From a virus, in the IMG/VR virus record IMGVR_UViG_3300025769_000069: DNA of 64,000 nt. One strand, given 5' to 3'. Position 1 is the stretch's first letter. Every line of letters starts with the position of its first letter. A model generated the notes under the pieces. It saw nothing but the letters and a program-made list of their open reading frames with translations, ran no database searches and had not been told where the DNA came from. This document shows positions 1,178 to 18,944 of the stretch, one piece after another. Position numbers and translations under genes: made by a program.

Positions 1178-1186
1178 GAGGTATAA

Positions 1187-2968
1187 ATGCTATTATTACA
1201 TAATCCAAACCTTGGCCATATTGTAAGTTACGATATCAGAAATTTAAGGCCTTCTAGATTAGATAGTGATAATGGCCCTCTGATGGTTGTTGATATGAAT
1301 TACCCTGAATTTAAATCTCAACTTTGGAATAAGCAAGGGCCGTGGAGAGATAGTGCTGACGGGGGACACGCCGGACAAAGGTTGCCGAAAGATTTTTATC
1401 CAAATGACACTGTTCAATATGATTTAGACAGGAGTGCTGGGGATACCTATTTCAGAGGCGGTATTCATAATATTAAATTCTGGCCAGCTGGATACAATGA
1501 AGCTTCTGGTAAAAGTTCTTTCGTTACTGTACATTACGGACCGCCCTATTACTTTGTTAGAAGATATGTTGGATATGGTGCATCACCAACCACTGGTTTC
1601 CAATTACAGCAAGAAGCAAGTCAAATTACTTCATGGCAAGTAAATAATCCTAGGGGAGATCTTTCAGAATTTCATAGATATTATTCTGGCCATAACTTTA
1701 TTGGAGATTCTCAATCATGGGATTATTCTGAAGCAAACTTATTTAGAAATGATTTATATTATGGTGCTTTCTTTAAATCATATCCATATTCTGCAGTAAA
1801 TAATTTAGTTGATGTTGAATTTCCACACAATCAACTGATATGGACTCTAGAGTCTAGAGATGACGTGGCAGGTGACACCCATTGCGGGACCTTAAGAAGA
1901 TATAATACTTCATCCTCTTATTGGCACAATTGGTCTTCTACTGCTTCATTCACCAGCCCAGCAACAACTATTGCTATAGATTCTGATTTTTTAAATGTAG
2001 CCGCAGGTGATGACTGGTATATTGGCCCATCATCCGGTAATTTTGTCGCGTCAGCGGTGAAAATAAGAATTCAAAGACCAGAAAGTGTTGCGATTCCGTC
2101 TACTCAACAAAGTAGAAAAGTTCTAATGCATGTACGTGGAATAATTCCAAGACATGATAGAGGATATAATTATAAAAGTTGGTATGATTGGGATCATCAT
2201 GATAGTATAGGAAGCAACTACGTTGGGTACAGAAGCGATTGGATTATTTCAGCAACTTTAACTGATGCAGCTGATGCTAATATTACGGCTGATAGTAGTG
2301 CTTATCACTTTAATATTGCTCAGCACATCGGATATCAAGGCTCCAATTATTCACCAACGAAACAGAGATATTATACCGACATTCAAGCCTTTGACATTAG
2401 TAATGATGGGAAAATATTAACTGTCGCGGTTGACGATTTTGCTGGCGGCGACGCTATACTAAACTTTACTTTAGATACACCATGGGATTTGCGCACGGTG
2501 CAACCATGGGATTGGTATGATAGCGCTGCTGCGGCTTCTGGCCGCGGTGGGACTGATACACTGTCCGGTTTTGGCATCAGCAAAAGCGTTGGGACCGCGA
2601 TTAATGTTCCAAGGCGGGAGTTTTACACGAACGCAGATAGTGCTATGACATATAGATTATATAACATAGCAGACGTAAAAGGTATGACTGGAGTTGTTGG
2701 TAGTGGTACTTCTTATCTTGGTGACTCTGGTGATTTTACTCACTGGACTATAAACAAAGCCGCCACCTACGAAAGAGGAATAGGTAACGGCATTAATGCT
2801 ATTCAATGGAATGATCGTGGAACCTTATTATACGTAGTGGGCCAAGATGGGGCTGTAGTACAATATGAAACTGGTATATTAAGAGATAGCGCTTTTGCTA
2901 AAGATTTATACTACACCGATGACAGCACTGGACCCGGTGGAAAAATCACTTGGTATGGTAGAAAATAA
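1187..2968 (+). CDS. Hypothetical virion protein with beta-propeller-like C-terminal repeats
   Basis: 593-aa ORF with SD GAGGT; motifs FDISNDGKIL...FTLDTPWDL and WNDRGTLLYVVG...VVQY resemble propeller blades in marine phage structural proteins. Confidence 0.55.
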   Translation: MLLLHNPNLGHIVSYDIRNLRPSRLDSDNGPLMVVDMNYPEFKSQLWNKQGPWRDSADGGHAGQRLPKDFYPNDTVQYDLDRSAGDTYFRGGIHNIKFWPAGYNEASGKSSFVTVHYGPPYYFVRRYVGYGASPTTGFQLQQEASQITSWQVNNPRGDLSEFHRYYSGHNFIGDSQSWDYSEANLFRNDLYYGAFFKSYPYSAVNNLVDVEFPHNQLIWTLESRDDVAGDTHCGTLRRYNTSSSYWHNWSSTASFTSPATTIAIDSDFLNVAAGDDWYIGPSSGNFVASAVKIRIQRPESVAIPSTQQSRKVLMHVRGIIPRHDRGYNYKSWYDWDHHDSIGSNYVGYRSDWIISATLTDAADANITADSSAYHFNIAQHIGYQGSNYSPTKQRYYTDIQAFDISNDGKILTVAVDDFAGGDAILNFTLDTPWDLRTVQPWDWYDSAAAASGRGGTDTLSGFGISKSVGTAINVPRREFYTNADSAMTYRLYNIADVKGMTGVVGSGTSYLGDSGDFTHWTINKAATYERGIGNGINAIQWNDRGTLLYVVGQDGAVVQYETGILRDSAFAKDLYYTDDSTGPGGKITWYGRK

Positions 2969-2989
2969 TTTTAGTTTATAATTAGTTTT

Positions 2990-3026
2990 AAAATAAAGGT
3001 CAACATTGTTGGCCTTTTATTTTTTT
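2990..3026 (+). terminator. Rho-independent terminator (possibly bidirectional)
   Basis: AAAGGTCAAC-ATT-GTTGGCCTTT stem with T-run downstream and A-run upstream. Confidence 0.65.
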
Positions 3027-3041
3027 ATAAATTGATTTGAT

Positions 3042-3049
3042 TATAAATA
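3042..3049 (+). promoter_or_regulatory. T4-type late (gp55) promoter
   Basis: Exact TATAAATA, intergenic, upstream of fibre operon. Confidence 0.8.
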
Positions 3050-3105
3050 AAATCAAATGGAGCAGGGGCGTGTTGGCGCGTCCGACAAAGAAACACGAGG
3101 ATTTC

Positions 3106-3459
3106 ATGGCCCAATATGAAGAGTTTACTATTGACCAAGGCAGCGATGTATCTGTAGAAATAAGCTGCGTAAATATAGACGGATCAGTTAAAGATTTATC
3201 TAACCATACAATCCAAGCAAAAATGAAGAAAAGTTATAACAGTGACTCGGCAGACACTGTTGATTTTACTGCGGGCGTAGGTGTACCAGCAGCTGATGGA
3301 GTTATACTCTTATCTCTTACAAATAGTCAAACTGATGCTATTAAACCGGGAAGATGGGTATATGATGTTGAAATTTCTTTTGTAGATAGTGATGGCGCCG
3401 TAATTAAAGAAAGAATTCTAGAAGGTAGAGTTCAAGTAACACCATCAGTCACTAGGTAA
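3106..3459 (+). CDS. Baseplate/fibre attachment protein (BppU N-terminal-like)
   Basis: True start MAQYEEFTIDQG at 3106 after GAGG; LSLT..QT..IKPGRWVYDVEI...RILEGRVQVTPSVT pattern common before marine phage fibres. Confidence 0.65.
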   Translation: MAQYEEFTIDQGSDVSVEISCVNIDGSVKDLSNHTIQAKMKKSYNSDSADTVDFTAGVGVPAADGVILLSLTNSQTDAIKPGRWVYDVEISFVDSDGAVIKERILEGRVQVTPSVTR

Positions 3460-3465
3460 GAGAAC

Positions 3466-6400
3466 ATGGCAGATAGAATCATAACAACAAAAATTAAAAA
3501 TGTCAAAGTTGGTAGACCAATTAGAAGTACTGTTGGAGCTACTATTACTTTTGGCGGTTTATCAGATACTCTTATCACTCTTCAGGCTCATGATGATACA
3601 ATAATCTGGGATAGCGATTATGCAAGATGGGTAAACGTACCTTCTCTTACTCTTATAGATTCTGCTGTTTCTAATAATAGTACACTACAGTCATCTATTA
3701 GAGAGTTGATTAGTGGTTCTGGCGATGTCCAATATAATTCTTCTACTGGTGTAATTTCTTTAACAACAACTCAATCTAATTTTGATTCAAACTTTAATGT
3801 TGCTATAGATGCCGCAGCTCTAGATGGTGTTGGACTTGCATATGATTCCGGAACTAGAGCTCTTTCAATTGACAGCGCGGAATTAGCATCATACTATAGA
3901 CAAGATATTAGATCTTATTTTTCAGCTGATGGTGATTTATCTTATAATGCCACAACAGGTGAATTTAGTTTTGATGTTGAGAATGTCTATACTCAAGCTA
4001 ATTTCGACTCAGACTTTAACACAACTCTAGATAATGCTGCCATTGATGGTGTTGGTCTTACATACGATGCTGAAAACAATAAATTAAGTATTGACTCAGC
4101 TGAACTTTCACAATATTATAGTACAAATGATATTACTGAAGGTTCCAATAATTTATATTACACAACAGCTCGTTCTGACTCAGATTTTGATGTAAGATTA
4201 GCAACTAAAACCACTAGTGATGTTTCTGAAGGAACTAATTTATATTATACAACAACTAGATTTGATTCTGATTTTGCTGCTATATTTGATTCTAATTTCA
4301 ATATAGCATTAGATGGTGCGGCCCTAAATGGTAATGGATTAGATTATAATGATTTTGACAATACTCTATCCATTGCTGATACGCTAGTTGAAGCAGGCAA
4401 TTATGGTGGAGTTACAACATCATTAGATCTCCGCATTTTGTCAACTGGACAAATTGATTCAGCAGTGGCTAGACCTATCGCTGTTGTTCAAGCATTTACC
4501 TTTAGTGACTCATCTAGAGGGCAATTTACAATAAATACCCCTGCAGGCGACTTCACTGCTACTATGGGTGAGTATGTTACTGATGAAGCAAGAGCAGCTC
4601 TAGTTGCTGGTACTGGTGTAACTTATGACAGCGCTAATGGAATTATTTCAATTGGCCAAGCTGTTGCAACATCAAGTAATGTTCAGTTTAATAACTTAAC
4701 ACTTGATGGTGATCTTACTGTTAATGGCACAACAACCACTATTAATTCTACGACAATAAGTGTAAATGATAAGAATATCGTTCTTGCTGATAGCGCTGTA
4801 GACTCAGCTGCAACAGATGGAGCTGGTATTACTGTTGCAACTTCCGGAGCATCAATTACATACGATCATACAAATGCTACATGGGATTTGAATAGGCCTC
4901 TTGGAAGAGATATTAATGTTCTATCAGAGCATTCTACAGATGATGTATCTGAGGGATCTAATCTATATTATACAACTGCTAGAGCAAATACAGATTTTGA
5001 TACCAGACTTGCAACTAAAACAACTGGTGATCTAACCGAAGGTTCTAATCTTTATTATACTAGATCTAGATTTGATAGTGACCTTGCTTCTGATCCATCA
5101 GTATCGTCAATTAGAACTTATTTCTCTACAACTGGCGATTTAAGCTATGATAATTCAACTGGTGTCTTTAGTTTTAACGTTGAAGATGCTTATACTCAAG
5201 AAAACTTTGAGTCAGACTTTACTCAAGCAGTAGACAGCATATCAACTAATTTAATACCAGGAGCTGATATTACATATGATCTTGGTAGTTCAAGTCGTAG
5301 ATGGAGAGATTTATACTTAAGCGGTAGTTCAATTAATCTTGGTAATTTAGTTATCACAGATAGTTCTGGAATTTTTGCTGTAAAAGATAGTGCTGGCTCT
5401 GTTGTACAAATTGACCTTGCAACTAATACCACTAATGATTTAGCTGAAGGATCAACTAATTTATACTATACAACTGCTAGATTTGATTCTGATTTTGGTG
5501 ATAATACAACAAGTGATCTAACCGAAGGTTCTAATCTTTATTATACAGATGATCGTGTTAATACCTTTTTAGGAAGTGGGAGTGCAACAACATTAACAAC
5601 AACTGGCAACGTTACCGTTGGTGGCGATTTAACTGTTAATGGCACAACAACCACTATTAATTCTACTACGTTATCGGTTAATGATAAGAACATAGTTCTA
5701 GCTGATAGCGCTGCAGATTCTTCAGCTGCTAATGGTGCTGGTATTACTGTAGCTGGAGCTAATGCTACAATCTTATATGATCATGCAAATGCTACATGGG
5801 ATTTAAATAGACCTCTTGGAAGAGATATTAACGTTCTTTCTGAACATAGCACTACAGATCTAAGCGAAGGTTCTAATCTTTATTATACTAGAGCAAGATT
5901 TGATTCTGCATTAGGAGATACTACATCAACTTCTACTATTAGAGGATATTTCTCAGCTGGTGGAGACTTATCATATAATTCTTCTACTGGTGAATTTAGT
6001 TTTGATGTTGAAAATGTTTATACAAAAGCCAACTTCGATTCTGATTTCAACTATGCTCTAGACAGTGCTGCTTTAGGCGGCACAGGGTTAACATATACAG
6101 CTAGTACCAATACATTAAGCATAACTAATACTGGTGTAGATTCAGGCGTATATGGTTCGGCGTCTTTAGTTCCTGTTCTTACTATTAATGCTCAAGGTCA
6201 AATTGATTCAGCTGGAACAGTTTCAGTTGCTGGAGTATCATCAGTTACTTTTGATAGCGCTAATTATAACTACACAATCTCTACAGCTGATGGTGGAAGT
6301 TACTTAAAGAACATTCATACCAGACCTACTCTATCCAATATTGCTGGCACTTATGGCTCAGCTTCAGCAGTTCCTATTGTAAAAGTAGATCAATTTGGTC

Positions 6401-9400
6401 ACGTGGATTCTATTAGCACGGTATCTGTTGCTGGTGTAACTAATTTTGCATATGATTCAGCTGAAGGTAGACTTACAATTAGTACAGCAGATGGTGGATC
6501 TTATCCTACTGTAGTTACTCTAGATCCATTCACCACTACCAATTTAAGTGAAGGTTCGAACCTTTACTATACAACTGCTAGATTTGATAGCGACTTTGGT
6601 GATAATACCACCTCAGATCTTACAGAAGGTTCTAATCTTTATTATACAACTGCACGAGCAGATTCAGATGCTAAGGCAGCAATTTCTGTAACAGATGCTG
6701 GTGGTGATGGTTCATTAACATATAATTCAGGAGTAATAACCTATACAGGTCCATCTGCTTCAGAAGTTAGAGCTCATTTTACAGCTGGAACTGGTGTTTC
6801 TATTTCAAGTGGGGAAGTTTCAATTGGGCAACCTGTTGCAACCACTTCAGATGTTACCTTTGCAAAAATTACAGGTGACTCTGCTAACCTTGATAATATT
6901 AAATTTACAACCTTATCAACACCCCCATCAAGTACATTTGGTACAATGTATTATGACTCTGATGAGCAGAAAGGCCCATCTATTACTCTTCGGACTTTAG
7001 AAAACACTGCACCAGGTGTTACTCTTAATGTAGGCCAAGAGATATTATTATATGTGCATAACTTAACAGGTGCACAAGTCAATAATGGTGATGTAGTTTA
7101 TATTTCAGGCACAGCACATGGTAAACATCCTCAGATATCTTTAGCAAAAGCTGATGCATCTTCTACTGCACAACCAACCGGTGTTGCAACAATGGATATT
7201 CCAGATGGAGCACATGGTTGGGTTACAAGATATGGTATGGTGCGAGATCTTGATACTTCTGCTTATACTGCTGGAGATGTTCTATATCTTTCAAAAGATT
7301 CTGATGGTAAGTTAACAAATACATCAATCACTGTTGATGAAGGGTATCCTGTTCACATAGCAAGAGTTATGACTGCTGATGCAAGCGCAGGTATGATACT
7401 TGTTGATCCATTCTCAGAACATTTTGAATATCTAAGAGTTCAAGATAGAGTGAAAATAGATGGATCACTACAAGCTGATTCAGCTGCTCTTGGACAAATT
7501 GAATTTTCTACTAGCTGGGCTGATAGCCATATTGGATTCACAGAAGGTGCTCTTTGGTATGATCCGTATCATAAAAATTTAAATTATTATACGGACTTCG
7601 ATCATCCAATTGAAATTGGTATGCAAGTTATCGAAAGAGTTTATAACGAAACAGGATCGACAATCAATAAAGGTTCACCTCTTTACTATTCTGGTAATCG
7701 TACCGATATTGCAGGGCAAGAATCGCCTACTGTTGCTCTAGCAAATGCAACATCTTCTACAAAGTATAATGTACAAGGTTTGGCGGCTGAGGATATACCA
7801 AACAATTCATACGGACAGATCGTAGTTGCTGGTGTAATTGATGGTTTTGACACTTCATCATTAAATGCAGGTGAAAATTTCTTTGTTGGTTTAACAGATG
7901 GTGCTGTTCAAAATGCGCCTCCTAGTTATCCAAACTATCCTATGTGTCTAGGTTGGGTGATAATTTCAGATCCAAGTAATGGTAAAGTAATTATAAACCA
8001 ACAAAACCATTCTGTTAATAGCTTTAGGGTTCAAGGTGACACCCATATTAGTTCAAATCTTATTGTTGATGGTAACTTTACGGTTAACGGAACCCAGACA
8101 ATTGCTTCTACAGAAAATGTTAATATTGGTGGTAATATACAATATTTGAACGCTGGTAATACTATTGGTGAAGATAATACAGTATTCGTTGGTACAGGTT
8201 TAGACGACGCATTTTATGCTGGACATTATAGTGGAGATTCATCAAGTAAATCATTCTTTGTAAAAATTGATGGTACAGGCACACCAGATACATTTGAATG
8301 GGGATTTGATAGCTCAGTAGGTACAGAGGCAACAGGTGTTGCGATTACTGGAGCTGAACAAACTTTAGCAGCTGGTATTTCAATTGATTTTGGTGCGACA
8401 ACTGGTCACACGAGTGGAGATAAATGGACTGGTACAGCCAGTGCACTTAATACTGACACTGGCTTATTCTCTAATAAAAATGAAGGTGATGCTGGGAACG
8501 GTTATACACATATCGGTTTGTATTGGGATGCGTCTGAAGATGAGTGGACTTTTGTAGGACAATATGAGTCAGAACCAACGGCACCTATTGATAGATCAGC
8601 ACCCACTTTCCAATATGGCGATGTTAGAGGTAAAGATTTTTATGGTACAACATTTAATGGTGCACTTTCAGGTAATGCAACGACAGCTACAAGATTACAA
8701 ACCGCTAGAAACTTTAGTCTAACAGGTGACATTACTGCAAGTGCAGTATCATTCGATGGTACAGGTAACATACAACTTACCACTGCCTATAATCCTAATT
8801 CAATTGTAAATGGCGATATTAGTCCAACTGCAGCCATTGTAGATACTAAACTGGCTACGATTAGTACTGCTGGTAAAGTACAAAATGGCGCAACAACAGC
8901 AACAAGTGCAAATACAGCTTCTGCTATCGTAGCTCGTGATGCATCTGGTAACTTTAGTGCAGGTACAATTACTGCTGACTTTGATAGATCTGCAAATACA
9001 ACGGTCGCAGCTGGTACATATGGTTCGGCTTCATTAGTCCCAGTCTTAACAATTGATGCTAGTGGATTTATTGATTCTGCCGGCACAGTATCTGTTGCTG
9101 GTGTTTCTAGCACTACTTGGGATTCTGACACTGCAATATTTACCATTAATACAGCAGATGGCGGATCATATGAAACTAGAACATTAATTAATTCTAATCT
9201 TGTTAATCATGATAATACAACAGGCTTTGTGGCTGATGAGCATATTGCTCACTCCGGAGTAACAATTACTGCTGGTACAGGTTTAACTGGTGGTGGTACA
9301 ATAGCTGCTAGCAGAACACTGAATGTTGTTGGTGGTAACGGTATTATTGCTAACGCTAACGATATTCAAATCGACTCTGCTAATGTTAGAGGAATGTTTA

Positions 9401-10041
9401 GTGGTTCAGCTGGCGTAAACTATAACTCATCTACTGGTGCATTTGATGTAGATGAAGCTAACGTAATACATAATAACTTATCAGGCTTTGTAGCTGATGA
9501 GCATATTGCTCACAGTGGTGTATCAATAACAGCCGGTAACGGTCTAACTGGTGGTGGTACAATAGCTGCTAGCAGAACAATTAATGTTGGAGCTGGTACT
9601 GGTGTTACTGTTAATGCTAATGATATTGCGATTGGACAAGATGTTGCTACTTCAGCATCACCTACGTTTGCTGGTGGTACATATACTAGCAATGTTACAT
9701 TCCAAGGTAATATACAATTAGATGAATTTGTAATTAATTCTCAAACTACTACTACCGCAACAGTTTCTCAAACTGCAGTTGCTACATTCTCTGCAACAAC
9801 ATATGGTTCAGCAGAGGCAGTAGTTACAGCAAAAGATGGATCGAATAGACATATAACTAAATTCTTAATAGTACATAATGGAACAAGTGCTTCTCATTCA
9901 GAATATGGTACAGTCTTAACAAATACAAGTTTAGCTACATATGATGTAGATGTAAGTGGAGGAAATGTAAGAATACTAGCAACACCAGCGTCATCAAATA
10001 GCACGGTGTTCAATGTTTCTCTTACATTAATTGATGCATAA
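3466..10041 (+). CDS. Large repeat-rich tail fibre / virion fibre protein
   Basis: 2191 aa, T/S/D/G-rich; about 9 copies of (T/S)T.D(L/V).EG(S/T)NLYYT, duplicated GDLTVNGTTTTINSTT...VNDKNIVLA modules, C-terminal beta domain. Confidence 0.8.
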   Translation: MADRIITTKIKNVKVGRPIRSTVGATITFGGLSDTLITLQAHDDTIIWDSDYARWVNVPSLTLIDSAVSNNSTLQSSIRELISGSGDVQYNSSTGVISLTTTQSNFDSNFNVAIDAAALDGVGLAYDSGTRALSIDSAELASYYRQDIRSYFSADGDLSYNATTGEFSFDVENVYTQANFDSDFNTTLDNAAIDGVGLTYDAENNKLSIDSAELSQYYSTNDITEGSNNLYYTTARSDSDFDVRLATKTTSDVSEGTNLYYTTTRFDSDFAAIFDSNFNIALDGAALNGNGLDYNDFDNTLSIADTLVEAGNYGGVTTSLDLRILSTGQIDSAVARPIAVVQAFTFSDSSRGQFTINTPAGDFTATMGEYVTDEARAALVAGTGVTYDSANGIISIGQAVATSSNVQFNNLTLDGDLTVNGTTTTINSTTISVNDKNIVLADSAVDSAATDGAGITVATSGASITYDHTNATWDLNRPLGRDINVLSEHSTDDVSEGSNLYYTTARANTDFDTRLATKTTGDLTEGSNLYYTRSRFDSDLASDPSVSSIRTYFSTTGDLSYDNSTGVFSFNVEDAYTQENFESDFTQAVDSISTNLIPGADITYDLGSSSRRWRDLYLSGSSINLGNLVITDSSGIFAVKDSAGSVVQIDLATNTTNDLAEGSTNLYYTTARFDSDFGDNTTSDLTEGSNLYYTDDRVNTFLGSGSATTLTTTGNVTVGGDLTVNGTTTTINSTTLSVNDKNIVLADSAADSSAANGAGITVAGANATILYDHANATWDLNRPLGRDINVLSEHSTTDLSEGSNLYYTRARFDSALGDTTSTSTIRGYFSAGGDLSYNSSTGEFSFDVENVYTKANFDSDFNYALDSAALGGTGLTYTASTNTLSITNTGVDSGVYGSASLVPVLTINAQGQIDSAGTVSVAGVSSVTFDSANYNYTISTADGGSYLKNIHTRPTLSNIAGTYGSASAVPIVKVDQFGHVDSISTVSVAGVTNFAYDSAEGRLTISTADGGSYPTVVTLDPFTTTNLSEGSNLYYTTARFDSDFGDNTTSDLTEGSNLYYTTARADSDAKAAISVTDAGGDGSLTYNSGVITYTGPSASEVRAHFTAGTGVSISSGEVSIGQPVATTSDVTFAKITGDSANLDNIKFTTLSTPPSSTFGTMYYDSDEQKGPSITLRTLENTAPGVTLNVGQEILLYVHNLTGAQVNNGDVVYISGTAHGKHPQISLAKADASSTAQPTGVATMDIPDGAHGWVTRYGMVRDLDTSAYTAGDVLYLSKDSDGKLTNTSITVDEGYPVHIARVMTADASAGMILVDPFSEHFEYLRVQDRVKIDGSLQADSAALGQIEFSTSWADSHIGFTEGALWYDPYHKNLNYYTDFDHPIEIGMQVIERVYNETGSTINKGSPLYYSGNRTDIAGQESPTVALANATSSTKYNVQGLAAEDIPNNSYGQIVVAGVIDGFDTSSLNAGENFFVGLTDGAVQNAPPSYPNYPMCLGWVIISDPSNGKVIINQQNHSVNSFRVQGDTHISSNLIVDGNFTVNGTQTIASTENVNIGGNIQYLNAGNTIGEDNTVFVGTGLDDAFYAGHYSGDSSSKSFFVKIDGTGTPDTFEWGFDSSVGTEATGVAITGAEQTLAAGISIDFGATTGHTSGDKWTGTASALNTDTGLFSNKNEGDAGNGYTHIGLYWDASEDEWTFVGQYESEPTAPIDRSAPTFQYGDVRGKDFYGTTFNGALSGNATTATRLQTARNFSLTGDITASAVSFDGTGNIQLTTAYNPNSIVNGDISPTAAIVDTKLATISTAGKVQNGATTATSANTASAIVARDASGNFSAGTITADFDRSANTTVAAGTYGSASLVPVLTIDASGFIDSAGTVSVAGVSSTTWDSDTAIFTINTADGGSYETRTLINSNLVNHDNTTGFVADEHIAHSGVTITAGTGLTGGGTIAASRTLNVVGGNGIIANANDIQIDSANVRGMFSGSAGVNYNSSTGAFDVDEANVIHNNLSGFVADEHIAHSGVSITAGNGLTGGGTIAASRTINVGAGTGVTVNANDIAIGQDVATSASPTFAGGTYTSNVTFQGNIQLDEFVINSQTTTTATVSQTAVATFSATTYGSAEAVVTAKDGSNRHITKFLIVHNGTSASHSEYGTVLTNTSLATYDVDVSGGNVRILATPASSNSTVFNVSLTLIDA
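4708..5890 (+). repeat. Intragenic duplication of a ~90-aa module (about 4708-4980 and 5620-5890)
   Basis: GDLTVNGTTTTINSTT.SVNDKNIVLADSA...ATWDLNRPLGRDINVLSEHST.D.SEGSNLYYT occurs twice. Confidence 0.85.
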
Positions 10042-10074
10042 TAATTTTCCCGGTGGCGAGGAAGGTGTAATTAA

Positions 10075-12297
10075 ATGGTAAAAAAACCATTTATAATAAA
10101 AGATCAGGAACTGAGAGTCGGTAACAATAGAGTTATTGACTCAGATGGGCAATGGGTTGGATCAACAACTGGAATCTCTGGTTATCAAGGAGATACTGGA
10201 GTTAGTGGTGCTCAGGGTAGGCAGGGTGTAGCTGGTATTCTTGGAGTTGCAGGCTTTCAAGGACCGGGTGGAGCAACTGGTGCTGGGGGTGCTCAAGGTG
10301 TCCAAGGTTCTGCTGGATCAGCTGGTCCTCAAGGTTTCCAAGGTCGACAAGGTTTTCAAGGTGTTCAAGGATATACTGGTGTTCAAGGTCCACAGGGACC
10401 TCAAGGATCTACTGGTGCAACTGGTAGACAAGGTGTCGGTGGTGTTCAAGGTGCTGCTGGCCGGCAGGGTGTCCAAGGTGCACAAGGTCCTCAGGGACCA
10501 CAGGGACCACAAGGTTCAAGAGGGCCACAGGGTGGCGCTGGACCCACTGGAGCAACAGGTAGAACTGGTGTTGCCGGTGTTCAAGGTTATCAGGGTGTTC
10601 AAGGCTACCAGGGAACTCAGGGTGCTCGTGGACCACAGGGACCGCAAGGTCCAGTAGGACCAACTGGTGCGACTGGTCGACAAGGTGCTCAGGGTGCTGC
10701 TGGTCGTCAGGGTGTTCAAGGATACCAGGGAACACAGGGTGCTAGAGGACCACAAGGACCGCAGGGTCCGGTAGGACCAACTGGAGCATCTGGTCGTCAA
10801 GGTGGAGTTCCAGGTGCCGGCACAGTAACTTATCAAATATATTCAACTCATGGTGGCAGCGGTAACACTAGTCAATACTCAAATTTTCCTACAAACTCTA
10901 CAAACTTTGATGCGTATTTCAATACAAACTATTCAAACACAACTTTGCACAGCTCTGGTTCAGCTGCAATAACTACAATTTTAAATTGGACAAATTATAC
11001 TACTTTGACTGGTGCTGGAATATCAGTACCAAATTCTGGTAATTATTTTTCTGTAATAGTTTCAGGTACGTTCAGACCTCTTGAAACTGGTACTTACACG
11101 TTTACTGCAGAATCTGATGATGCTATTGACTTGTTTATTAATAATACTAATGTGGCTAGTTTTTATGGCGGAAGAGGTACTCCAGCTTTAGGAACAACTA
11201 CAGGAACCATTTCTTTAACCGCTGGTACTACATATACGTTTAGAGCTCGTACTCAAGAGTATGGTGGTGGCGAAGGTATGAGAGTCTTTTGGAAAAAGCC
11301 ATCAGAATCTGCTGGTTCAACATGGTATCAACACACTGCTGAACTTGGTGTTGCCGGCACAAGAGGACCTCTTGGTTATCAAGGAACTCAGGGTGCTCGT
11401 GGACCACAGGGACCTCAAGGACCGGTAGGACCAAATGGTGCTACTGGCCGACAAGGTGTCGGAGGCGCGCAAGGTCGTCAAGGTGTTCAAGGCTACCAGG
11501 GAACTCAGGGACCACAGGGATCAAGAGGACCACAGGGTTCTAGAGGACCACAGGGAGCAACTGGTAGACAAGGTCATCAGGGTGTTCAGGGTTATCAGGG
11601 TGTTCAGGGTTATCAGGGACCAAGAGGACCGCAAGGCGCTAGAGGACCACAGGGAGCAAGAGGTCCACAGGGTCCTACAGGACCAGCAGGAGCAACTGGT
11701 GTTGGTGGTGCAACTGGTCCTGGTGGACCAGCATCTTACACAGGATATACTGGTAGATCTGGTGTTCAAGGTAAGGCTGGTGCTCAGGGTTATCAGGGTG
11801 CCCAGGGATCTAGAGGACCACAAGGTCCACAAGGAACTTCATCTGCAAGTGGTGGATACAATCCTGCTACTGTTACACATAGCTATCTTTCAGTAAATAT
11901 TGGAGCAGCTTCTCCTACTGGAACAATTCAAGCAACTGGATCTATTACTGCTGGATATTCTGACAAAAGATTAAAACATGAAATTGAAATTATTAAAGAC
12001 GCAGTTGATAAATTAAAGTCTATTACTGGAATTTATTTTAGAACAAATGAAACCGGAAAGAAATTAGGTTTGGATACTGGAAGAAGACAAATTGGCTTGA
12101 TTGCTCAACAAATAGAAGCAATCGCTCCAGAATTAGTAACCAAAGCAGCATTAGCTGAAGAATTAGATAATGGAAATAATTATCTTACTGTAAAGTATGA
12201 TCGAGTAGTTGCTCTATTGTTACAAGCTATAAAAGAACAACAAGCACAAATAAATATATTGAAGCAAAAAGTAGAGCAAAGAGAAGTAAATGGCTAA
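10075..12297 (+). CDS. Collagen-like fibre 1 with inserted PA14-like domain and C-terminal S74 intramolecular chaperone
   Basis: Gly-X-Y at aa ~33-243 and ~425-589; PA14-like [24 protein letters not shown]...[16 protein letters not shown]; S74 motif YSDKRLK...IGLIAQQIE...LTVKY...LLQAIKE. Confidence 0.85.
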
Positions 12298-13963
12298 GAA
12301 ACCCTTTATAGTTCAAGAAGGAGTTACTGTTAATGGCACAGATGTCATTGACAATACCGGAAAGTGGGTTGCTAGCGCTGTTAATATTAGAGGTCCTCAA
12401 GGACCACAGGGTAGACAAGGTGCTCAAGGACCACAGGGTAGATCTGGATTAGATGGATCTCAAGGTCCACAGGGTGCAACCGGAGTTGCTGGGTTCCAAG
12501 GTCGCCAAGGTGCTCAAGGTGCAGTTGGTGCTCAAGGGATACAAGGTCCTCAGGGACCACAAGGACCACAAGGTGCTCGTGGGCCACAAGGTTCTGCTGG
12601 ACCAACAGGTGCAACTGGAGTTGCAGGTGTTCAAGGTTATCAGGGTGTTCAAGGATATACTGGTGTACAAGGTGCACAAGGTGTTCAAGGTTCTGCTGGA
12701 CCAACTGGTGCTGGAGGTAGAACTGGTGTTGGTGGTGTAACAGGTCCAACTAGTGGCGTAACAGGGTTTCAAGGTTATCAGGGTCGACAAGGTACACAAG
12801 GACCGCAAGGTGCTAGAGGACCGCAAGGACCAACCGGTGTTGGCGGGGTCGGTGGATCCACCGGTGCTTCAAGTAGTGTTGCTGGGTATCAAGGTAGACA
12901 GGGTGCAGTTGGTGCTCAAGGAACACAAGGTCCAAGAGGTCCTCAAGGTCCAACTGGTGTTGGAGGAGTAGGCGGGTCCACCGGTGCTTCAAGTAGTGTA
13001 GCAGGTTATCAAGGCAGACAAGGATCAAATGGTGCTCAAGGCGGGACAGGACCACGGGGACCACAAGGTCCAACCGGTGTTGGAGGAGTAGGCGGATCCA
13101 CCGGTGCTTCAAGTAGTGTTGCTGGTGTTCAAGGCTACCAAGGTGTTCAAGGTTATCAGGGAACTCAAGGTGCTAGAGGACCACAGGGATCGACCGGTGC
13201 AACTGGTGTTGGTGGTGTAACAGGTGTTGGTGGTGTAACAGGTACTCAAGGTGTTCAAGGTCCTCAAGGTTCGCGTGGACCACAGGGTTCTAGAGGACCA
13301 CAAGGTTCAACAGGTGTTACTGGTGTTGGTGGTGTTAGTGGTGCAGCAAGTGCTACTACTGGTCCGACAGGTAGAACTGGTTTCCAAGGCGTTCAGGGAT
13401 ATGCTGGTTATCAAGGTGCTAGAGGACCGCAAGGACCACAGGGTGCTCAAGGTTATCAGGGAACTCAAGGTGCTAGAGGACCACAAGGAGGAGGAGGACC
13501 AACTGGTGTGGCTGGTGCTCAGGGTGCTGCTGGAGCAGTTACTAATACTGCTCAAGTATTAGCATTTGGCGTTGGAACTCCAGCTGGACCAACTGGAGAT
13601 CTAAGAGCATCTGGTAACATTGTATCATATTATTCAGATATTAGATTAAAAGATAAAATTGAATATATTAAAGATCCAAATGTAAAAATAAAGAATTTAA
13701 ATGGTGTATTTTATACTCAAAATGAATTTGCTGAAAAATATGGATACCATGATTATAGAACACAAGTTGGATTAATTGCTCAAGAAGTAAATAAAATATT
13801 ACCTGAAGTTATTGAAGATGCTCCTTTTAACTTAAGAGACAATACAGACGATAAATATTTAACAGTGCGTTATGAACACATTGTTCCTTTATTAGTTGAA
13901 GCTATAAAAGAACAACAAGAAGAAATAGAAGAACTATCTAGGGTATTGTTAAATGGCGACTAA
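12290..13963 (+). CDS. Collagen-like fibre 2 with C-terminal S74 chaperone
   Basis: Gly-X-Y aa ~35-417; YSDIRLK...VGLIAQEV...[18 protein letters not shown]. Confidence 0.85.
12820..13160 (+). repeat. Three tandem 120-nt (40-aa) repeats in collagen 2
   Basis: Rows starting 12841, 12961 and 13081 align; each encodes [17 protein letters not shown]. Confidence 0.85.
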
Positions 13964-15635
13964 AAAGTTTGACATAAAAAATGGATTAACTATCAGAGGT
14001 AGTTCAAATATCCCAGTAATTGATAGTGATGGTAATTGGATAGGTCCAACAACTTTAGTTGGTACTGGTCCGCAGGGTGCTCAGGGTGCTGCCGGTCCGC
14101 AAGGTGTTCAAGGAACAAATGGTACACAAGGACCATCTGGTCCGCAGGGTGTTCAAGGTCCTCAAGGTCCTCAGGGACCAGCTGGAAGACAGGGTACAAA
14201 TCCAACAGGAGCAACTGGTGTTGGTGGTAGAACTGGTGTTGGTGGTGTAACAGGTGCAACTAGTGGTGTAGCTGGTTTCCAAGGCCGACAAGGTACACAA
14301 GGACCGCAAGGTGCTAGAGGACCACAAGGTCCACAAGGTGTTCAGGGAGCAGCTGGAGTATCAAATGCAACTGGTTTCCAAGGTCGACAAGGTTATCAAG
14401 GTGTTCAAGGATATACTGGTGTTCAAGGACCACAAGGTCCACAGGGACCTCAAGGATCTACTGGTGCTACTGGCCGACAAGGTGTTGGTGGTCGACAAGG
14501 TGTTCAGGGTGTTCAGGGATATACTGGTTATCAGGGTCCTCAAGGACCGCAAGGACCACAGGGAGCAGCTGGTCGTCAGGGATCAACTGGTGCAACGGGT
14601 GTAGCTGGTAGACAAGGTCATCAGGGTGTTCAGGGATATACTGGTTATCAAGGTACTCAGGGTCCTCAAGGACCACAGGGTCCAGCAGGAGCACAGGGTG
14701 CAGTTGGTGCTCAAGGTGGTTCTGGTCGTCAAGGTCGTCAAGGTGTTCAGGGATATACTGGTTATCAGGGTGCGCAAGGTGCTAGAGGACCACAAGGTGC
14801 TAGAGGACCACAAGGTCCAACCGGTAGAATTGGTGTAACTGGTGTGGCTGGTCGACAAGGTTATCAAGGTGTTCAGGGTTATCAAGGTGTTCAGGGTTAT
14901 CAAGGACCAGCAGGAGCAACTGGTAGAGGTGGTGTTGCTGGCCGTCAAGGTGTTACTGGCCGTCAAGGTGTTCAGGGTTATCAAGGCGTTCAGGGTTATG
15001 GCGGAGCATCTGGTTATCAAGGTACACAAGGACCACAGGGTCCTAGAGGACCGCAAGGGCCGCAAGGAGCAGCGACAGGGACAGGTCCTCAAGGTTCGCG
15101 TGGACCACAGGGTCCAACTGGAGTAACTGGTCCTTCAGGTGTTGCTGGTAGACAAGGTGCTCAAGGTTATCAGGGATACGCCGGCGTAGCTGGAACAACA
15201 ACTCAAGTAGATAAACTATTAGTTGGATCTCCAGCACCAGCATCAACTTCAATGGGAGTTGGAGATATTAGAGCAGCAAGTTATATTACAGCAGGTTACT
15301 CTGATATTAGATTAAAAAATGTAAAAGGGCCAATAGATAATCCTATAAAAAGAATTAGCAAATTAAATGGTTATTATTATTCTCCAAATGAATTAGCAAA
15401 AAATATTGCAAATGACTTTTCTGGACGGAAAATTGGCCTGATTGCTCAAGAATTAGAACAGGCTTTACCTGAAGTACTTAGAGGTGCTCCGTTTGATATA
15501 AATAAGCATGGACATAGTATTTCTGGCGAGAAGTATTTAACAGTGGACTATCCAAGAGTAATTCCTTTATTAATTGAAGCACTAAAGGAACAAAAAAATC
15601 AAATAGATGATTTAAAATCTAGAATAGGAAAATAA
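13953..15635 (+). CDS. Collagen-like fibre 3 with C-terminal S74 chaperone
   Basis: Gly-X-Y aa ~39-416; YSDIRLK...IGLIAQELE...LTVDYPRVIPLLIEALKE. Confidence 0.85.
   Translation: MATKKFDIKNGLTIRGSSNIPVIDSDGNWIGPTTLVGTGPQGAQGAAGPQGVQGTNGTQGPSGPQGVQGPQGPQGPAGRQGTNPTGATGVGGRTGVGGVTGATSGVAGFQGRQGTQGPQGARGPQGPQGVQGAAGVSNATGFQGRQGYQGVQGYTGVQGPQGPQGPQGSTGATGRQGVGGRQGVQGVQGYTGYQGPQGPQGPQGAAGRQGSTGATGVAGRQGHQGVQGYTGYQGTQGPQGPQGPAGAQGAVGAQGGSGRQGRQGVQGYTGYQGAQGARGPQGARGPQGPTGRIGVTGVAGRQGYQGVQGYQGVQGYQGPAGATGRGGVAGRQGVTGRQGVQGYQGVQGYGGASGYQGTQGPQGPRGPQGPQGAATGTGPQGSRGPQGPTGVTGPSGVAGRQGAQGYQGYAGVAGTTTQVDKLLVGSPAPASTSMGVGDIRAASYITAGYSDIRLKNVKGPIDNPIKRISKLNGYYYSPNELAKNIANDFSGRKIGLIAQELEQALPEVLRGAPFDINKHGHSISGEKYLTVDYPRVIPLLIEALKEQKNQIDDLKSRIGK
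15497..15504 (+). promoter_or_regulatory. Candidate internal late promoter for the hydroxylase cluster
   Basis: Exact TATAAATA inside the 3' end of collagen 3, ~135 nt before the next ORF; could be chance in AT-rich DNA. Confidence 0.45.
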
Positions 15636-15639
15636 AGAA

Positions 15640-15894
15640 ATGGCAATAGATCTTTCTACACAAGATATAGAAACACATTCTAAAGAAGGTTTCTTCAATG
15701 AAAACGAAACTGCAGTAGACGCTTCAGTAAATGCTTCTGGATGGTGGAAATTAACTATGGTTGATGGAACATTTACAGCAGCAGCAGCTGCTACTGAAGC
15801 TGAAGATGGTGCAACTGTAAATGAAGCAGCGCAATTAGTATATAATGTGGATGAAACAACTATTCATATGTATGTTAATTTTAACGTAGAATAA
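15640..15894 (+). CDS. Small acidic hypothetical protein
   Basis: 84-aa ORF tightly packed in the operon. Confidence 0.6.
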   Translation: MAIDLSTQDIETHSKEGFFNENETAVDASVNASGWWKLTMVDGTFTAAAAATEAEDGATVNEAAQLVYNVDETTIHMYVNFNVE

Positions 15895-15916
15895 AATTTA
15901 ATTTTTGAGGTGATTT

Positions 15917-16495
15917 ATGGCATGGCAAGGTGATTGGTGTTATTTTGAATCGTATTTAAATAAACAAGACTGTGAAGAAATAATCGCTCAAGCAAAACTA
16001 TTACCATCACAAGATGCAGTAGTTGGTTTGGGTGAAGATGCTCATCTTACGGAATATCGTAAAAGTAAAGTATCATTTATTCAAGCAGGTGATTGGAGAT
16101 TTCAAAAATTATTTGATGCTTTATGGAAAACACAAATTCAAGCAAATAAAGATTTCTTTAATATCCACGTTAATAGACTTGATTTTGTACAATTTGCAGA
16201 ATATGATGCATCTATTCAAGGCGAATATAAAGAGCATGTAGATACTTTTTGGATGAATGGCGATCCAACACATCATAGAAAAATATCATGTGTATTGCAA
16301 TTATCGGATCCAAATGACTATGATGGTGGTGATTTAGAAATTGTAGATTCTTCTAATCCACCAGATCCAAAAGATTACAGAGCTCAAGGAACTTTTATCT
16401 ATTTTCCTTCAGTCTTAAAACACAAAGCAAATCCAGTTACGAGAGGAACTAGATATAGTATTGCTGCGTGGTTTGAAGGCCCTAAATGGATTTAG
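15917..16495 (+). CDS. 2OG-Fe(II) dioxygenase (PKHD/prolyl-hydroxylase-like)
   Basis: HVD...RKISCVLQLS...YDGGDL...HKANPVTRGTRYSIAAW. Confidence 0.85.
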   Translation: MAWQGDWCYFESYLNKQDCEEIIAQAKLLPSQDAVVGLGEDAHLTEYRKSKVSFIQAGDWRFQKLFDALWKTQIQANKDFFNIHVNRLDFVQFAEYDASIQGEYKEHVDTFWMNGDPTHHRKISCVLQLSDPNDYDGGDLEIVDSSNPPDPKDYRAQGTFIYFPSVLKHKANPVTRGTRYSIAAWFEGPKWI

Positions 16496-17220
16496 CGCAA
16501 GCAAAAGAGTATGATGTTCCTTTTAAATACTTCGTGATAGACAATTTTTTAAAAGCTGATTTAGCACATACTTTATCAAAACAGTTCCCTTCACATTCTT
16601 CTAAAAAATGGTTTGCTTATGACAATCCATTAGAAAGAAAAAAGGCTATTCAAAACTGGGGATCTTTTCCACCGGAAACTTATCAGTTATTTTTATCATT
16701 ATGTTGCGAAAAGTTTACTGATAAATTAAGAAAGCTAACCGGGGATGCATGTCTTAAGCCTGATTATGGATTACATGGTGCTGGTTGGCATATGAGCAAA
16801 AGTGGAGATCATTTAAATATTCATCAAGATTATTCTATTCATCCACTAGCTAATATGCAAAGGAAATGGAACATTATAATCTATCTTACTCCAAACTGGA
16901 AAAAAGAATGGGGTGGAAATTTAGAATTTTGGAGCCATAATGAAGAATTAAATCAAGCAAAGAAAAAAGAAGTATCTATTGATTGTGTATTTAATAGAGC
17001 TGTTTTGTTTGATACCACTCAAAATTCATGGCATGGATTTCCAGAAACAATTAAATGTCCTCAAGGAATATACCGAAAAAGCATTGCAATGTATTATTTG
17101 TCGCCAATACAAGAGAGTGCTGTTGATAGACCTAGAGCATTATATAGTCCACGAGAAGATCAAATAAATAACGATAAGATCCTTGAATTTATTAAGAAAC
17201 GTGCTGAGAAAACATCATGA
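16486..17220 (+). CDS. 2OG-Fe(II) dioxygenase (Tpa1/OGFOD1-like proline hydroxylase family)
   Basis: HQD...IIYLTPNW..EWGGNLEFW...FNRAVLF...WHG...RKSIAMYY. Confidence 0.85.
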   Translation: MDLAQAKEYDVPFKYFVIDNFLKADLAHTLSKQFPSHSSKKWFAYDNPLERKKAIQNWGSFPPETYQLFLSLCCEKFTDKLRKLTGDACLKPDYGLHGAGWHMSKSGDHLNIHQDYSIHPLANMQRKWNIIIYLTPNWKKEWGGNLEFWSHNEELNQAKKKEVSIDCVFNRAVLFDTTQNSWHGFPETIKCPQGIYRKSIAMYYLSPIQESAVDRPRALYSPREDQINNDKILEFIKKRAEKTS

Positions 17221-18944
17221 ATAAAGAATGTAAAATTGTTATGGTAGCCATGTTTAAGAACGAAGCACATGTTCTTCGAAACATGCTTGATTCTGTAGTT
17301 GGATATATTGATTATTATGTAATTCAAGATAATGGATCTACAGATGGTTCTCCTGATATTGTAAATGAATGGGCTGCTGAGAATAATATTCCAGGTGTTC
17401 TTTATAAAGTTGAAGAAGGCTGGAAAGGATTTGGCTGGAATAGAGATCATTTAATTCGTTATTGCCAAAATGAAGTCGATCATGGTTGTGATTGGATTCT
17501 TAAAATGGATTGCGATGAAACATTAGAAGTTTATGATGATTTTGATTGGTCCGTATTTAATGATAAAACAGTTCATGGATTTAATATTCCAGCAATTTCT
17601 GGTTCAGCTGTATATTATAGAACATGGTTATGGAATGCAAATATGCAATGGGCGTTTAACCACGATCCATGCCATGAAACCATTTATTGTTTAGATCCAG
17701 AAATTGACCATGAATATAATACTTATCCGCTTCAAATAGGGTTTAATCAAATTGGATCAAATTCTGGAATGTCTTGGTCAGTTCCAACTAAATTTATTTC
17801 AGATTCTCTTGTACTTGAAGAAAAACTTATTCGTGAGCAAAATCTTTTAGAAAATATGTATCACTTTTGGTATATTGGTAAAAGCTATAGAGATGCAATG
17901 GAATCATCTGCATTTCCATTAGAAAAAAGACATGCTGATGAATATGCTAGACGATCAATTTGGTATTTAAATGAATATATTACTAAAGTTTTTAAAGATA
18001 AAAATGGTAATGTAGGTGTGGATGAGATGTGCTATATGGCTGGCATCATGGCAGCTGAAGCATATATTTTTATGGGTAAAAATGAAGAAGCTATTACTAC
18101 ATTAAAACCATTAGAAAGATTTGCTCCTGGAAGAAACGATCATCTATGGATGCTAGTAAAATTATATAAAGAAACAAAACAATATGATAAAATGCTAGAA
18201 ACAACAACAGTGATGATGGATCCGGATCGCAAGTTTCCATTTCCTCAATACTGCAATTTTATTGATCGGCAGCATTATGTTGATGGAACCGGGGATGTAC
18301 AAAGGTTACATGGTGAAGCTTTACAATTAGTAGAATGGCATTCAACTGAAGAAAAAGAATCTAATAATATATTTTCAATTAATAAGATTCCAACAAAAAG
18401 AGTTTGGGTTGTAGATAATTTTTATGAAAATCCTTATGAAATTAGAGATTGGGCTCTTAATAATCTAACCTTTGAAGACGGATCTGAGTGGTACAAAGGA
18501 TATAGATCTTTAGAAAAATATAGACCAATAGAACTTAAACATAAATTTGAAAATATTATTGGAGAGAAAATTGTAGATTGGGAAGGTGGTATGAATGGAG
18601 TTTTCCAAGTAACTCGTGCTTCTGACCCACAAGTTTGGCATTTTGATGAACAGCGTTGGGCTGGTATGATTTACTTATCACCTGATGCACCATATGAGAG
18701 CGGAACTAGGCTTCATATTTCAAAGATAAATAATGCTAGACATAGTATAGAAGATGCTGATATTATCGACGGCGCATTTAATGGAAACTTTTTTGATTCA
18801 ACTAAGTTTCATAATGTTGATATAGTCGGCAACATTTTTAATCGCCTTGCTATCTTCGATGCAAGACATATCCATTCTGCTGGAGAGTATTTTGGATCTG
18901 ATTTAGAAGATGGTAGACTTACACACTTATTCTTTTTTGACTAA
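17217..18944 (+). CDS. GT2 glycosyltransferase (SunS/flagellin-GT-like) + TPR-like helices + C-terminal 2OG-Fe(II) dioxygenase-like domain
   Basis: MFKNEA...DNGSTDG...WILKMDCDE...HE at N-terminus; WYIGKSY helical region; C-terminal VVDNFYENP...HFD...WAGMIYL...FNRL..FD...HSA...GRL. Confidence 0.75.
   Translation: MNKECKIVMVAMFKNEAHVLRNMLDSVVGYIDYYVIQDNGSTDGSPDIVNEWAAENNIPGVLYKVEEGWKGFGWNRDHLIRYCQNEVDHGCDWILKMDCDETLEVYDDFDWSVFNDKTVHGFNIPAISGSAVYYRTWLWNANMQWAFNHDPCHETIYCLDPEIDHEYNTYPLQIGFNQIGSNSGMSWSVPTKFISDSLVLEEKLIREQNLLENMYHFWYIGKSYRDAMESSAFPLEKRHADEYARRSIWYLNEYITKVFKDKNGNVGVDEMCYMAGIMAAEAYIFMGKNEEAITTLKPLERFAPGRNDHLWMLVKLYKETKQYDKMLETTTVMMDPDRKFPFPQYCNFIDRQHYVDGTGDVQRLHGEALQLVEWHSTEEKESNNIFSINKIPTKRVWVVDNFYENPYEIRDWALNNLTFEDGSEWYKGYRSLEKYRPIELKHKFENIIGEKIVDWEGGMNGVFQVTRASDPQVWHFDEQRWAGMIYLSPDAPYESGTRLHISKINNARHSIEDADIIDGAFNGNFFDSTKFHNVDIVGNIFNRLAIFDARHIHSAGEYFGSDLEDGRLTHLFFFD

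Follow-up and report, generated by a model that had tools for sequence, protein, structure and literature searches.

Three tandem genes for collagen-like proteins occupy positions 10,075 to 15,635, on the plus strand, of a 64,000-nt stretch of viral DNA from the IMG/VR virus record IMGVR_UViG_3300025769_000069 (the whole stretch is referred to as the window), and the question that they raise is why three chains with different internal repeat histories should have predicted triple helices of the same length. A preliminary description of the locus proposed that the three chains co-assemble as a 1:1:1 heterotrimer. We find that the three helices contain exactly the same number of Gly-X-Y triplet units and that their lengths co-vary, unit for unit, among related phages. 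Judged from sequence, the best explanation is one heterotrimeric collagen-like fiber of a T4-like aquatic myovirus, with each gene supplying one of its three strands (A, B or C), a reading that we favor while regarding it as evenly balanced between right and wrong.

The three open reading frames encode proteins of 740, 557 and 560 aa, exactly at the coordinates first proposed for them. Chains A, B and C share a common plan consisting of an N-domain of ~30 aa, a Gly-X-Y helix, a tip of ~30-40 aa and a Peptidase_S74 chaperone domain. The chain A gene (10075..12297, + strand; Pfam Collagen, PA14 and Peptidase_S74) starts with an N-domain (aa 1-32; 10075..10170) carrying a conserved Trp27, a motif that recurs in all relatives; the domain is presumed to serve in virion attachment or in N-terminal trimerization. 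The helix of chain A is in two parts, of 71 Gly-X-Y units (aa 33-245; 10171..10809) and of 55 units including the Gly-to-Ser unit 115 (aa 425-589; 11347..11841). Between them, after unit 71 of 126, lies a PA14/GLEYA-like lectin-type insert of 179 aa (10810..11346; PF07691, E 2.5e-11), in which the PA14 profile match covers aa 321-409 with 44 bits against a cut-off of 24. A mature C-terminal tip of ~39 aa (11842..11958) precedes the cleavage serine, and the Peptidase_S74 domain runs from Ser629 of SDKRLK (11959..12294; PF13884 at aa 629-689).

The chain B gene (12290..13963, + strand), whose ATG lies 8 nt inside the end of the chain A gene, encodes an N-domain (12290-12391), a helix of 383 aa that amounts to 126 units plus five one-residue extras (12392..13540), and an S74 domain from Ser449 of SDIRLK (13634..13960; Pfam match at aa 449-507). 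The chain C gene (13953..15635, + strand), with its ATG 11 nt inside the end of the chain B gene, likewise encodes an N-domain (13953-14066), a helix of 378 aa or 126 units (14067..15200) and an S74 domain from Ser450 of SDIRLK (15300..15632; Pfam match at aa 450-508). Pfam Collagen (PF01391) was detected in all three chains with E values of 9e-39 to 2e-49, and PF13884 with E values of 6e-12, 8e-10 and 1.5e-8, all above the gathering score. The self-cleavage motif (SDKRLK, SDIRLK and SDIRLK) is intact; none of its Ser, Asp, Arg, Leu and Lys residues varies among the three chains or in their relatives, and a conserved C-terminal helix is present in each S74 region. Autocleavage that releases the chaperone is predicted. 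Pairwise identity among the window chains is 35-50% in the N-domains and 39-45% in the C-terminal regions. The overlaps of 8 nt (A/B) and 11 nt (B/C) have counterparts in relatives, where adjacent genes overlap or are separated by gaps of a few nucleotides.

In order to compare helix lengths, a frame-neutral break was counted as a unit, a +1 break as an extra residue and a -1 break as a unit short of one residue. This is the simplest possible rule, and it was picked after L012, one of the related loci described below, had been seen. By this count each helix of the window comprises exactly 126 units, or ~108 nm at 0.286 nm per residue, which refines the ~125-127 triplets and ~110 nm proposed earlier. 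The earlier spans of 383 aa for the second chain and 378 aa for the third stand, and that of the first is corrected to 213 + 165 = 378 aa from 210 + 165 = 375 aa; the first helical residues are 33, 35 and 39, in agreement with the 33-39 aa given before. Perfect Gly-X-Y triplets number 125 in chain A, 122 in chain B and 123 in chain C, with a longest run of 78. Chain A consists of 71 triplets, the 179-aa insert, and then 43 and 11 triplets flanking the Gly-to-Ser triplet, while the helices of chain B (aa 35-417) and chain C (aa 39-416) contain five and four interruptions, respectively.

An ungapped residue comparison of the helices is uninformative because their start frames differ, and DNA-level blastn was used instead, along with the unit-level parse. 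The internal repeat periods are 117, 120 and 108 nt in the three chains, bearing out the different repeat histories that had been noticed. Between the collagen regions of the window, blastn found only short off-diagonal patches with 74-92% identity over 37-228 nt, and no similarity along a collinear diagonal. In all three helices Pro is restricted to X (29-35 residues per chain, with Y free of it) and Gln fills about half of the Y positions; each chain has 17-23 Arg, and at most one Lys and one acidic residue. With so few Lys and acidic residues there can be no inter-chain salt bridges, and chain selection must therefore reside in the terminal domains and not in the helix.

To collect relatives, we searched IMG/VR three times and JGI metagenomes once with the non-collagen C-terminal domains. 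Approximately 290 loci were recovered (numbered with the prefix L), many of which are tandem sets with a helix and a tip between an FxVKNGL...G.W.G N-domain and an S74 domain. In an IQ-TREE phylogeny, the C-terminal domains fell into three clades, each containing one chain of the window, with support of 99/96 for A, 98/95 for B and 80/85 for C. A second tree agreed, as did the placement by BLAST of loci added later. One A, one B and one C gene were present in each of the 12 complete loci, the window included. The order is A-B-C in the window, L004, L014, L002, L018, L236 and L212, and B-A-C in L084/L156, L012, L017, L001 and L041. Contigs that are cut at one end are compatible with the same one-of-each pattern.

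The preliminary description had looked to related genomes for the answer as to whether the three lengths co-vary. They do, and independent variation is clearly not the pattern observed. Unit counts for chains A/B/C are 126/126/126 in the window, 128/128/127 in L004, 138/138/139 in L236, 137/135/133 in L212, 155/156/155 in L084, 170/170/169 in L014, 169/170/173 in L001, 175/182/181 in L012, 69/69/69 in L002, 61/76/63 in L017 and 29/30/28 in L018. Counts thus range between genomes from ~29 to ~182. Partial sets are matched too (86/-/87 in L019, -/100/99 in L044 and -/143/142 in L011). Over the 11 complete triads the inter-chain length correlation is r = 0.995-0.999 and the intraclass correlation coefficient is 0.997; the mean within-genome range is 3.3 units versus 77 when permuted, none of 200,000 within-clade permutations was as tight, and 22 of the 33 pairwise differences are no larger than one unit. 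L004 and L014 group as sisters in every one of the three clades, with a difference of exactly 42 units for each chain.

Conservation applies to the count of triplet units and not to that of residues, since discounting the one-residue breaks tightened the within-genome match in eight of nine triads and worsened it in none. Chains B and C of L012 span 548 and 569 aa, equivalent to 182 and 181 units, and the L014 chains span 509, 508 and 497 aa, equivalent to 170, 170 and 169 units. Chain C of L012, built from 19-aa units with 26 one-residue extras, and chain C of L014, built from 35-aa units, are each within one unit of their uninterrupted partners. Length matching extends past the three-gene form, as two loci (L071, 9109-11437; L249, 8666-12140) hold two-gene sets of the same architecture, with chaperone domains outside A, B and C, and here too the two helices agree in length, at 95/93 units (L071) and roughly 135/135 units (L249).

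The regions of the chains differ in how far they carry clade identity. In the chaperone domain, identity is 0.60 between orthologs versus 0.49 between paralogs of the same genome; in the N-domain the relation is reversed, with 0.56 within a genome versus 0.49 between orthologs, and the 30-aa tip carries no clade signal in a region-by-region comparison of identity. Because the clade signal was found only in the chaperone domain, A/B/C identity appears to be confined to the part predicted to be cleaved off, and the mature A, B and C chains appear to be generic. Separate fibers made of generic chains would look redundant, yet every complete locus keeps a single gene of each clade, which favors an assembly that needs each of the three chains. 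The N-domains also bear genome-specific signatures shared by all three chains, such as KKPF/KKF in the window and ANDK in L084, and in some relatives the paralogous N-domains are 69-83% identical. This within-genome likeness points to concerted evolution or to co-adaptation to one virion partner.

How might three such genes yield one fiber? The genes, whose overlaps are observed, would be co-transcribed and translationally coupled, giving roughly equimolar chains. The three divergent S74 domains would associate A:B:C, thereby selecting one chain of each kind and nucleating folding, akin to procollagen C-propeptides or gC1q heads. Zipping of the helix would then begin at the C-terminus and proceed through 126 units, or ~108 nm, toward the N-terminus, with the one-residue breaks of one chain bulging out while the other two chains stay regular. 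At the far end, the three co-evolving N-domains of ~30 aa would come together in register as the attachment element of the fiber on the virion; it is because they must be in register that unit number, and not residue number, would have to be equal. Each S74 domain would cut itself off at the Ser/Lys motif, which is present in every chain, and leave a mature rod with a small conserved tip and a single PA14 domain looped out of chain A at unit 71, where it would bind host-surface glycans reversibly.

We prefer this heterotrimer on account of the unit-exact match, the retention of one gene of each clade, the location of clade identity in S74 and the overlapping start and stop codons. Co-assembly fits unit equality because it requires one-to-one pairing of units. 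A shared requirement for the same reach cannot yield one-unit agreement in rods of 25-160 nm made of unrelated repeat arrays; precise physical coupling is needed, and co-assembly supplies it because zipping that starts at a C-terminal trimer has to end with the three N-domains in register. In its broadest form, the hypothesis is that widespread aquatic T4-like phages build an obligate A:B:C collagen fiber of ~25-160 nm whose chains are chosen by self-cleaving S74 domains, with length tuned by parallel, unit-exact change in three genes and with single lectin-type domains that can be looped out of any chain; taken as a whole, this might equally well prove true or false. Of the earlier proposal that length is co-constrained because the chains co-assemble, the constraint is thus strongly supported, and co-assembly is the cause that we infer for it.

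Several observations weigh against a heterotrimer. To our knowledge, every characterized S74-chaperoned fiber (K1F/NF endosialidase, T5 pb1, the GA-1 appendage) is a homotrimer. The same holds for the characterized prokaryotic collagens, a point on which the preliminary description and a review agree (PMC8968730). The helix breaks are unaligned between the window chains, falling at units 71 and 115 in A, at 40/41, 54, 67, 80 and 106 in B, and at 16, 22, 34 and 113 in C, and in L012 there are 26 one-residue insertions in chain C against none in chain A. Since breaks that occur in some chains only, or that differ in length between chains, are tolerated in natural heterotrimeric collagens (PMC11923368), the unaligned breaks weigh only moderately. 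Zero-lag cross-chain correlation is absent from the window helices for Pro, Arg, aromatic residues, Gln and small residues, which neither supports nor counters co-assembly. The last helix of the S74 domain has a mean charge of +1.7 in A, -0.85 in B and +1.15 in C, and this asymmetry is at best a weak hint of complementarity. There are also natural sets that do not match. L017 has 61/76/63 units, and chain A is seven units shorter than chain B in both L012 and L074. The clearest natural exception to the length lock is L007, with 128/128/93 units, in which chain C has lost 34 triplets and chains A and B are unchanged. L007 is 96-99% identical to L004, and its chain C (3948-5312, compared with 5191-6873 in L004) has 90 versus 124 perfect triplets, or ~93 versus 127 units, and lacks one 306-nt unit. 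This is probably a genuine allele, as no stretch of more than 20 consecutive identical bases is common to the 306-nt repeat units; collapse during assembly, which was considered as a cause of the short chain, is judged unlikely with repeat units that are 82.5% identical.

The genes may instead encode three homotrimeric fibers, A3, B3 and C3, which owe their equal length to a shared physical requirement and are kept from mixing by the divergence of their S74 domains. We consider this a serious contender, although less probable than the heterotrimer. It would agree with the homotrimeric state of the S74 fibers and prokaryotic collagens just cited (PMC8968730), breaks would align automatically within a homotrimer while those between the present chains do not, and mismatched sets (L007, L017 and L012/L074) do occur in nature. 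The presence of PA14 in only one type of chain would fit a specialized fiber, and clade-specific chaperones are also to be expected if mixing must be avoided, so that the clade-specific S74 domains are compatible with hetero-selection as well as with keeping homotrimers apart. The shared requirement might, for example, be that both fiber ends are attached, that the fibers bundle laterally or that they reach a fixed distance from the virion. From a reach requirement one would not expect most genomes to agree within 0-1 unit (<1 nm in 25-160 nm), nor units to be conserved instead of residues, and separate homotrimers would need a hypothetical structure that fixes both ends. Generic mature parts, together with the likeness of N-domains within a genome, would make the three fibers near-redundant, and still all 12 complete loci keep one of each. 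We know of no phage structure that needs three distinct fibers of equal length, which further counts against separate homotrimers.

Two other accounts are improbable. Promiscuous co-assembly (AAB, ABC and so on) would force equal length without a fixed 1:1:1 composition, and it accounts for the equal-unit constraint as well as an ABC fiber does; the trimer-forming motifs (SDxRLK, GLIAQ, YLTV and the KEQ helix) are common to the three clades, and the N-domains and tips are interchangeable between chains. We nevertheless find it unlikely, as it leaves the retention of one member of each of three chaperone clades unexplained when one gene would suffice. Slightly less credible still is that equal length is a by-product of recent triplication or of periodic gene conversion, with no selection on length. 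The closer likeness of N-domains within genomes (69-83% in some relatives) suggests exchange of 5' ends, and chains B and C of L004 share the same SSIA break motif. Against this, the chaperone domains belong to three old clades, the collagen regions of the window are non-collinear and differ in repeat period and break pattern, and arrays of 19 aa (L012 chain C) and 35 aa (L014 chain C) land within one unit of their partners. Shared ancestry, which had been offered as an alternative cause of the matched lengths, is thus largely refuted for the window by the age of the clades, the non-collinear collagen DNA and the parallel change in length between L004 and L014.

If the three chains do form an A:B:C heterotrimer, a close parallel in overall design is complement C1q, with three tandem paralogous genes, a short N-region and collagen stalks of equal length. 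In C1q, a +1 break in one chain stands at a level where another chain is regular. The C-terminal domain of C1q directs A:B:C assembly, a role for which the S74 domain would be the counterpart here; the C1q head is retained as a binding domain, whereas cleavage is predicted to remove the S74 head. C1q, an animal protein, has no sequence relationship to the window chains, and its heterotrimer is established, whereas ours is proposed from the genes. In procollagen C-propeptides and collagen IX NC2, a terminal non-collagen domain selects the chains and nucleates folding from the C- to the N-terminus (PMC8968730). C-propeptides are removed after assembly by a separate protease, whereas removal of S74 would be autocatalytic through a Ser/Lys dyad; their fold is unrelated to S74, for which chain selection is a proposed role.

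Phage fibers and spikes with a C-terminal S74 chaperone (K1F/NF endosialidase, the T5 L-shaped fiber pb1; the domain is also found in Bdellovibrio MAT fibers and MYRF) share with the window chains the C-terminal PF13884 domain, the Ser...Lys motif and the C-terminal helix. They differ in having a beta-helix shaft instead of a collagen helix, and in the present triads each collagen chain has its own S74 domain, the three being old paralogs that are always retained as a set. A non-collagen precedent for a 1:1:1 heterotrimer is reported for Dishui Lake virophage 2 (DSLV2), in which the products of three consecutive fiber genes co-purify (PMC12724248). The DSLV2 fiber, which is related to Synechococcus phage fibers, resembles the window in its three-gene layout and in paralogs conserved across relatives (PMC12724248); its proteins are short (~16 nm), gp37-tip-like and free of collagen, and the likeness is one of gene layout alone. 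EPclA-D of E. coli O157 prophages (PMC3368898), Scl1/Scl2 and BclA also have Gly-X-Y shafts in phage or bacterial surface fibers without hydroxyproline, but these are products of single genes that form homotrimers with much shorter helices and other trimerization domains, and no length-locked sets of paralogs have been described for them. Collagen-like phage fibers with S74 chaperones are thus a known kind. A literature search found no paper on length-locked collagen triads in phages, and a conserved A/B/C triad with unit-exact co-variation in length appears to be undescribed in the searchable literature.

A confirmed heterotrimer would be without precedent among natural collagens outside animals, and animals could then no longer be credited with inventing heterotrimeric collagen. 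In phages, the solution to chain selection would be a small domain that removes itself, a viral counterpart of the procollagen C-propeptides, and an S74-type domain would be of direct use for making defined heterotrimeric recombinant collagens, which reviews name as an unsolved practical problem (PMC8968730). Whether the chains form one heterotrimer or three homotrimers, three fast-evolving repeat arrays are kept equal within one triplet while their common length varies about six-fold. This implies precise physical coupling of three gene products and provides a sequence-only signature for such assemblies. It also points to a long, adjustable fiber in the host-recognition region of abundant uncultured aquatic myoviruses.

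Globular inserts occur in the helices of other triads as well. L001 has PA14/GLEYA-matching inserts in chain A after unit 73 and in chain B after unit 62, and L212, the closest relative, has a Trp/Asn/Thr-rich insert of 227 aa (6714-7394) in chain C after unit 75 of 133, for which Pfam gave no match. The relative level of the insert is 0.56 in both chain A of the window and chain C of L212; a similar level in different chains is natural for one shared fiber, although it is not proof of one. The chain C gene is broken in the two closest relatives, L212 (5934-8363) and L211 (2147-4474), with an in-frame TAA in L212 where L211 has Gln and a frameshift near the start of the helix in L211. These interruptions could be sequencing errors, gene decay or recoding. 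Upstream of the triad, L156 carries a 1986-aa open reading frame (316-6276) with ~436 Gly-X-Y triplets and without the S74 motif, so that this part of the genome also encodes a far longer collagen-like protein.

PHROG matches assign the window to a T4-like myovirus and include the large terminase (32022), tail sheath (33692), portal (35948) and major head protein (39682), as well as a UvsW-type helicase, a gp46/47-type nuclease, a gp43-type polymerase (52975) and a gp41-type helicase. G+C content is ~35% in the window and 45-48% in the collagen genes. Megablast of positions 9000-17500 against 50,697 phage records returned nothing relevant, and tblastn with the chain C or chain B protein matched only the S74 domains of ordinary long tail fibers; Pseudomonas phage Milchi and Synechococcus phage DSL-LC03, both from the tblastn matches, were inspected and have no collagen triad. 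By these searches, none of the isolated phages is a close relative. The triad is flanked by a gene for a fiber-like protein of 2191 aa on one side and by a block of 2OG-Fe(II) oxygenase and glycosyltransferase genes on the other. This neighborhood fits the layout of the 'host recognition cluster' of aquatic pelagi- and cyanomyophages, in which collagen repeats are mentioned only in passing and in which a tape-measure gene, from which tail length as a conceivable ruler for the helices might have been read, is not recognizable (PMC7029224).

The 2191-aa fiber-like protein (3466-10041) contains many copies of SEGSNLYYTTARFDSDF-type motifs and had no match in Pfam; the gene is preceded by that of a 140-aa protein matching tail-fiber-assembly PHROGs. 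The T4-late-promoter-like motif TATAAATA lies at 3042..3049 on the + strand, and the only other + strand copy near the locus is at 15497. As no copy lies between these positions on that strand, the 2191-aa fiber gene and the three collagen genes probably share a single late transcript, a suggestion tempered by the count of TATAAATA across the whole window, which shows no excess over chance.

Downstream of chain C, 276 nt past its end and beyond an 84-aa open reading frame, lies a gene for a 192-aa 2OG-Fe(II) oxygenase of the prolyl-hydroxylase-type family (15917-16495; PF13640). The classical sites of collagen hydroxylation are missing from the window helices, in which Pro is absent from Y and Lys occurs no more than once per chain; the substrate may be Pro at X or a different protein. 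Next come a second 2OG-Fe(II) oxygenase (16486-17220) and then a 575-aa protein with a GT2 glycosyltransferase N-terminus and a DUF6445 C-terminus (17217-18944). Both oxygenases, the GT2/DUF6445 protein and the collagen genes possibly form a fiber-modification block. A copy of the first oxygenase with 57% identity (14264-14842) lies 8 nt after the triad in L156, even though L156 is a distant relative.

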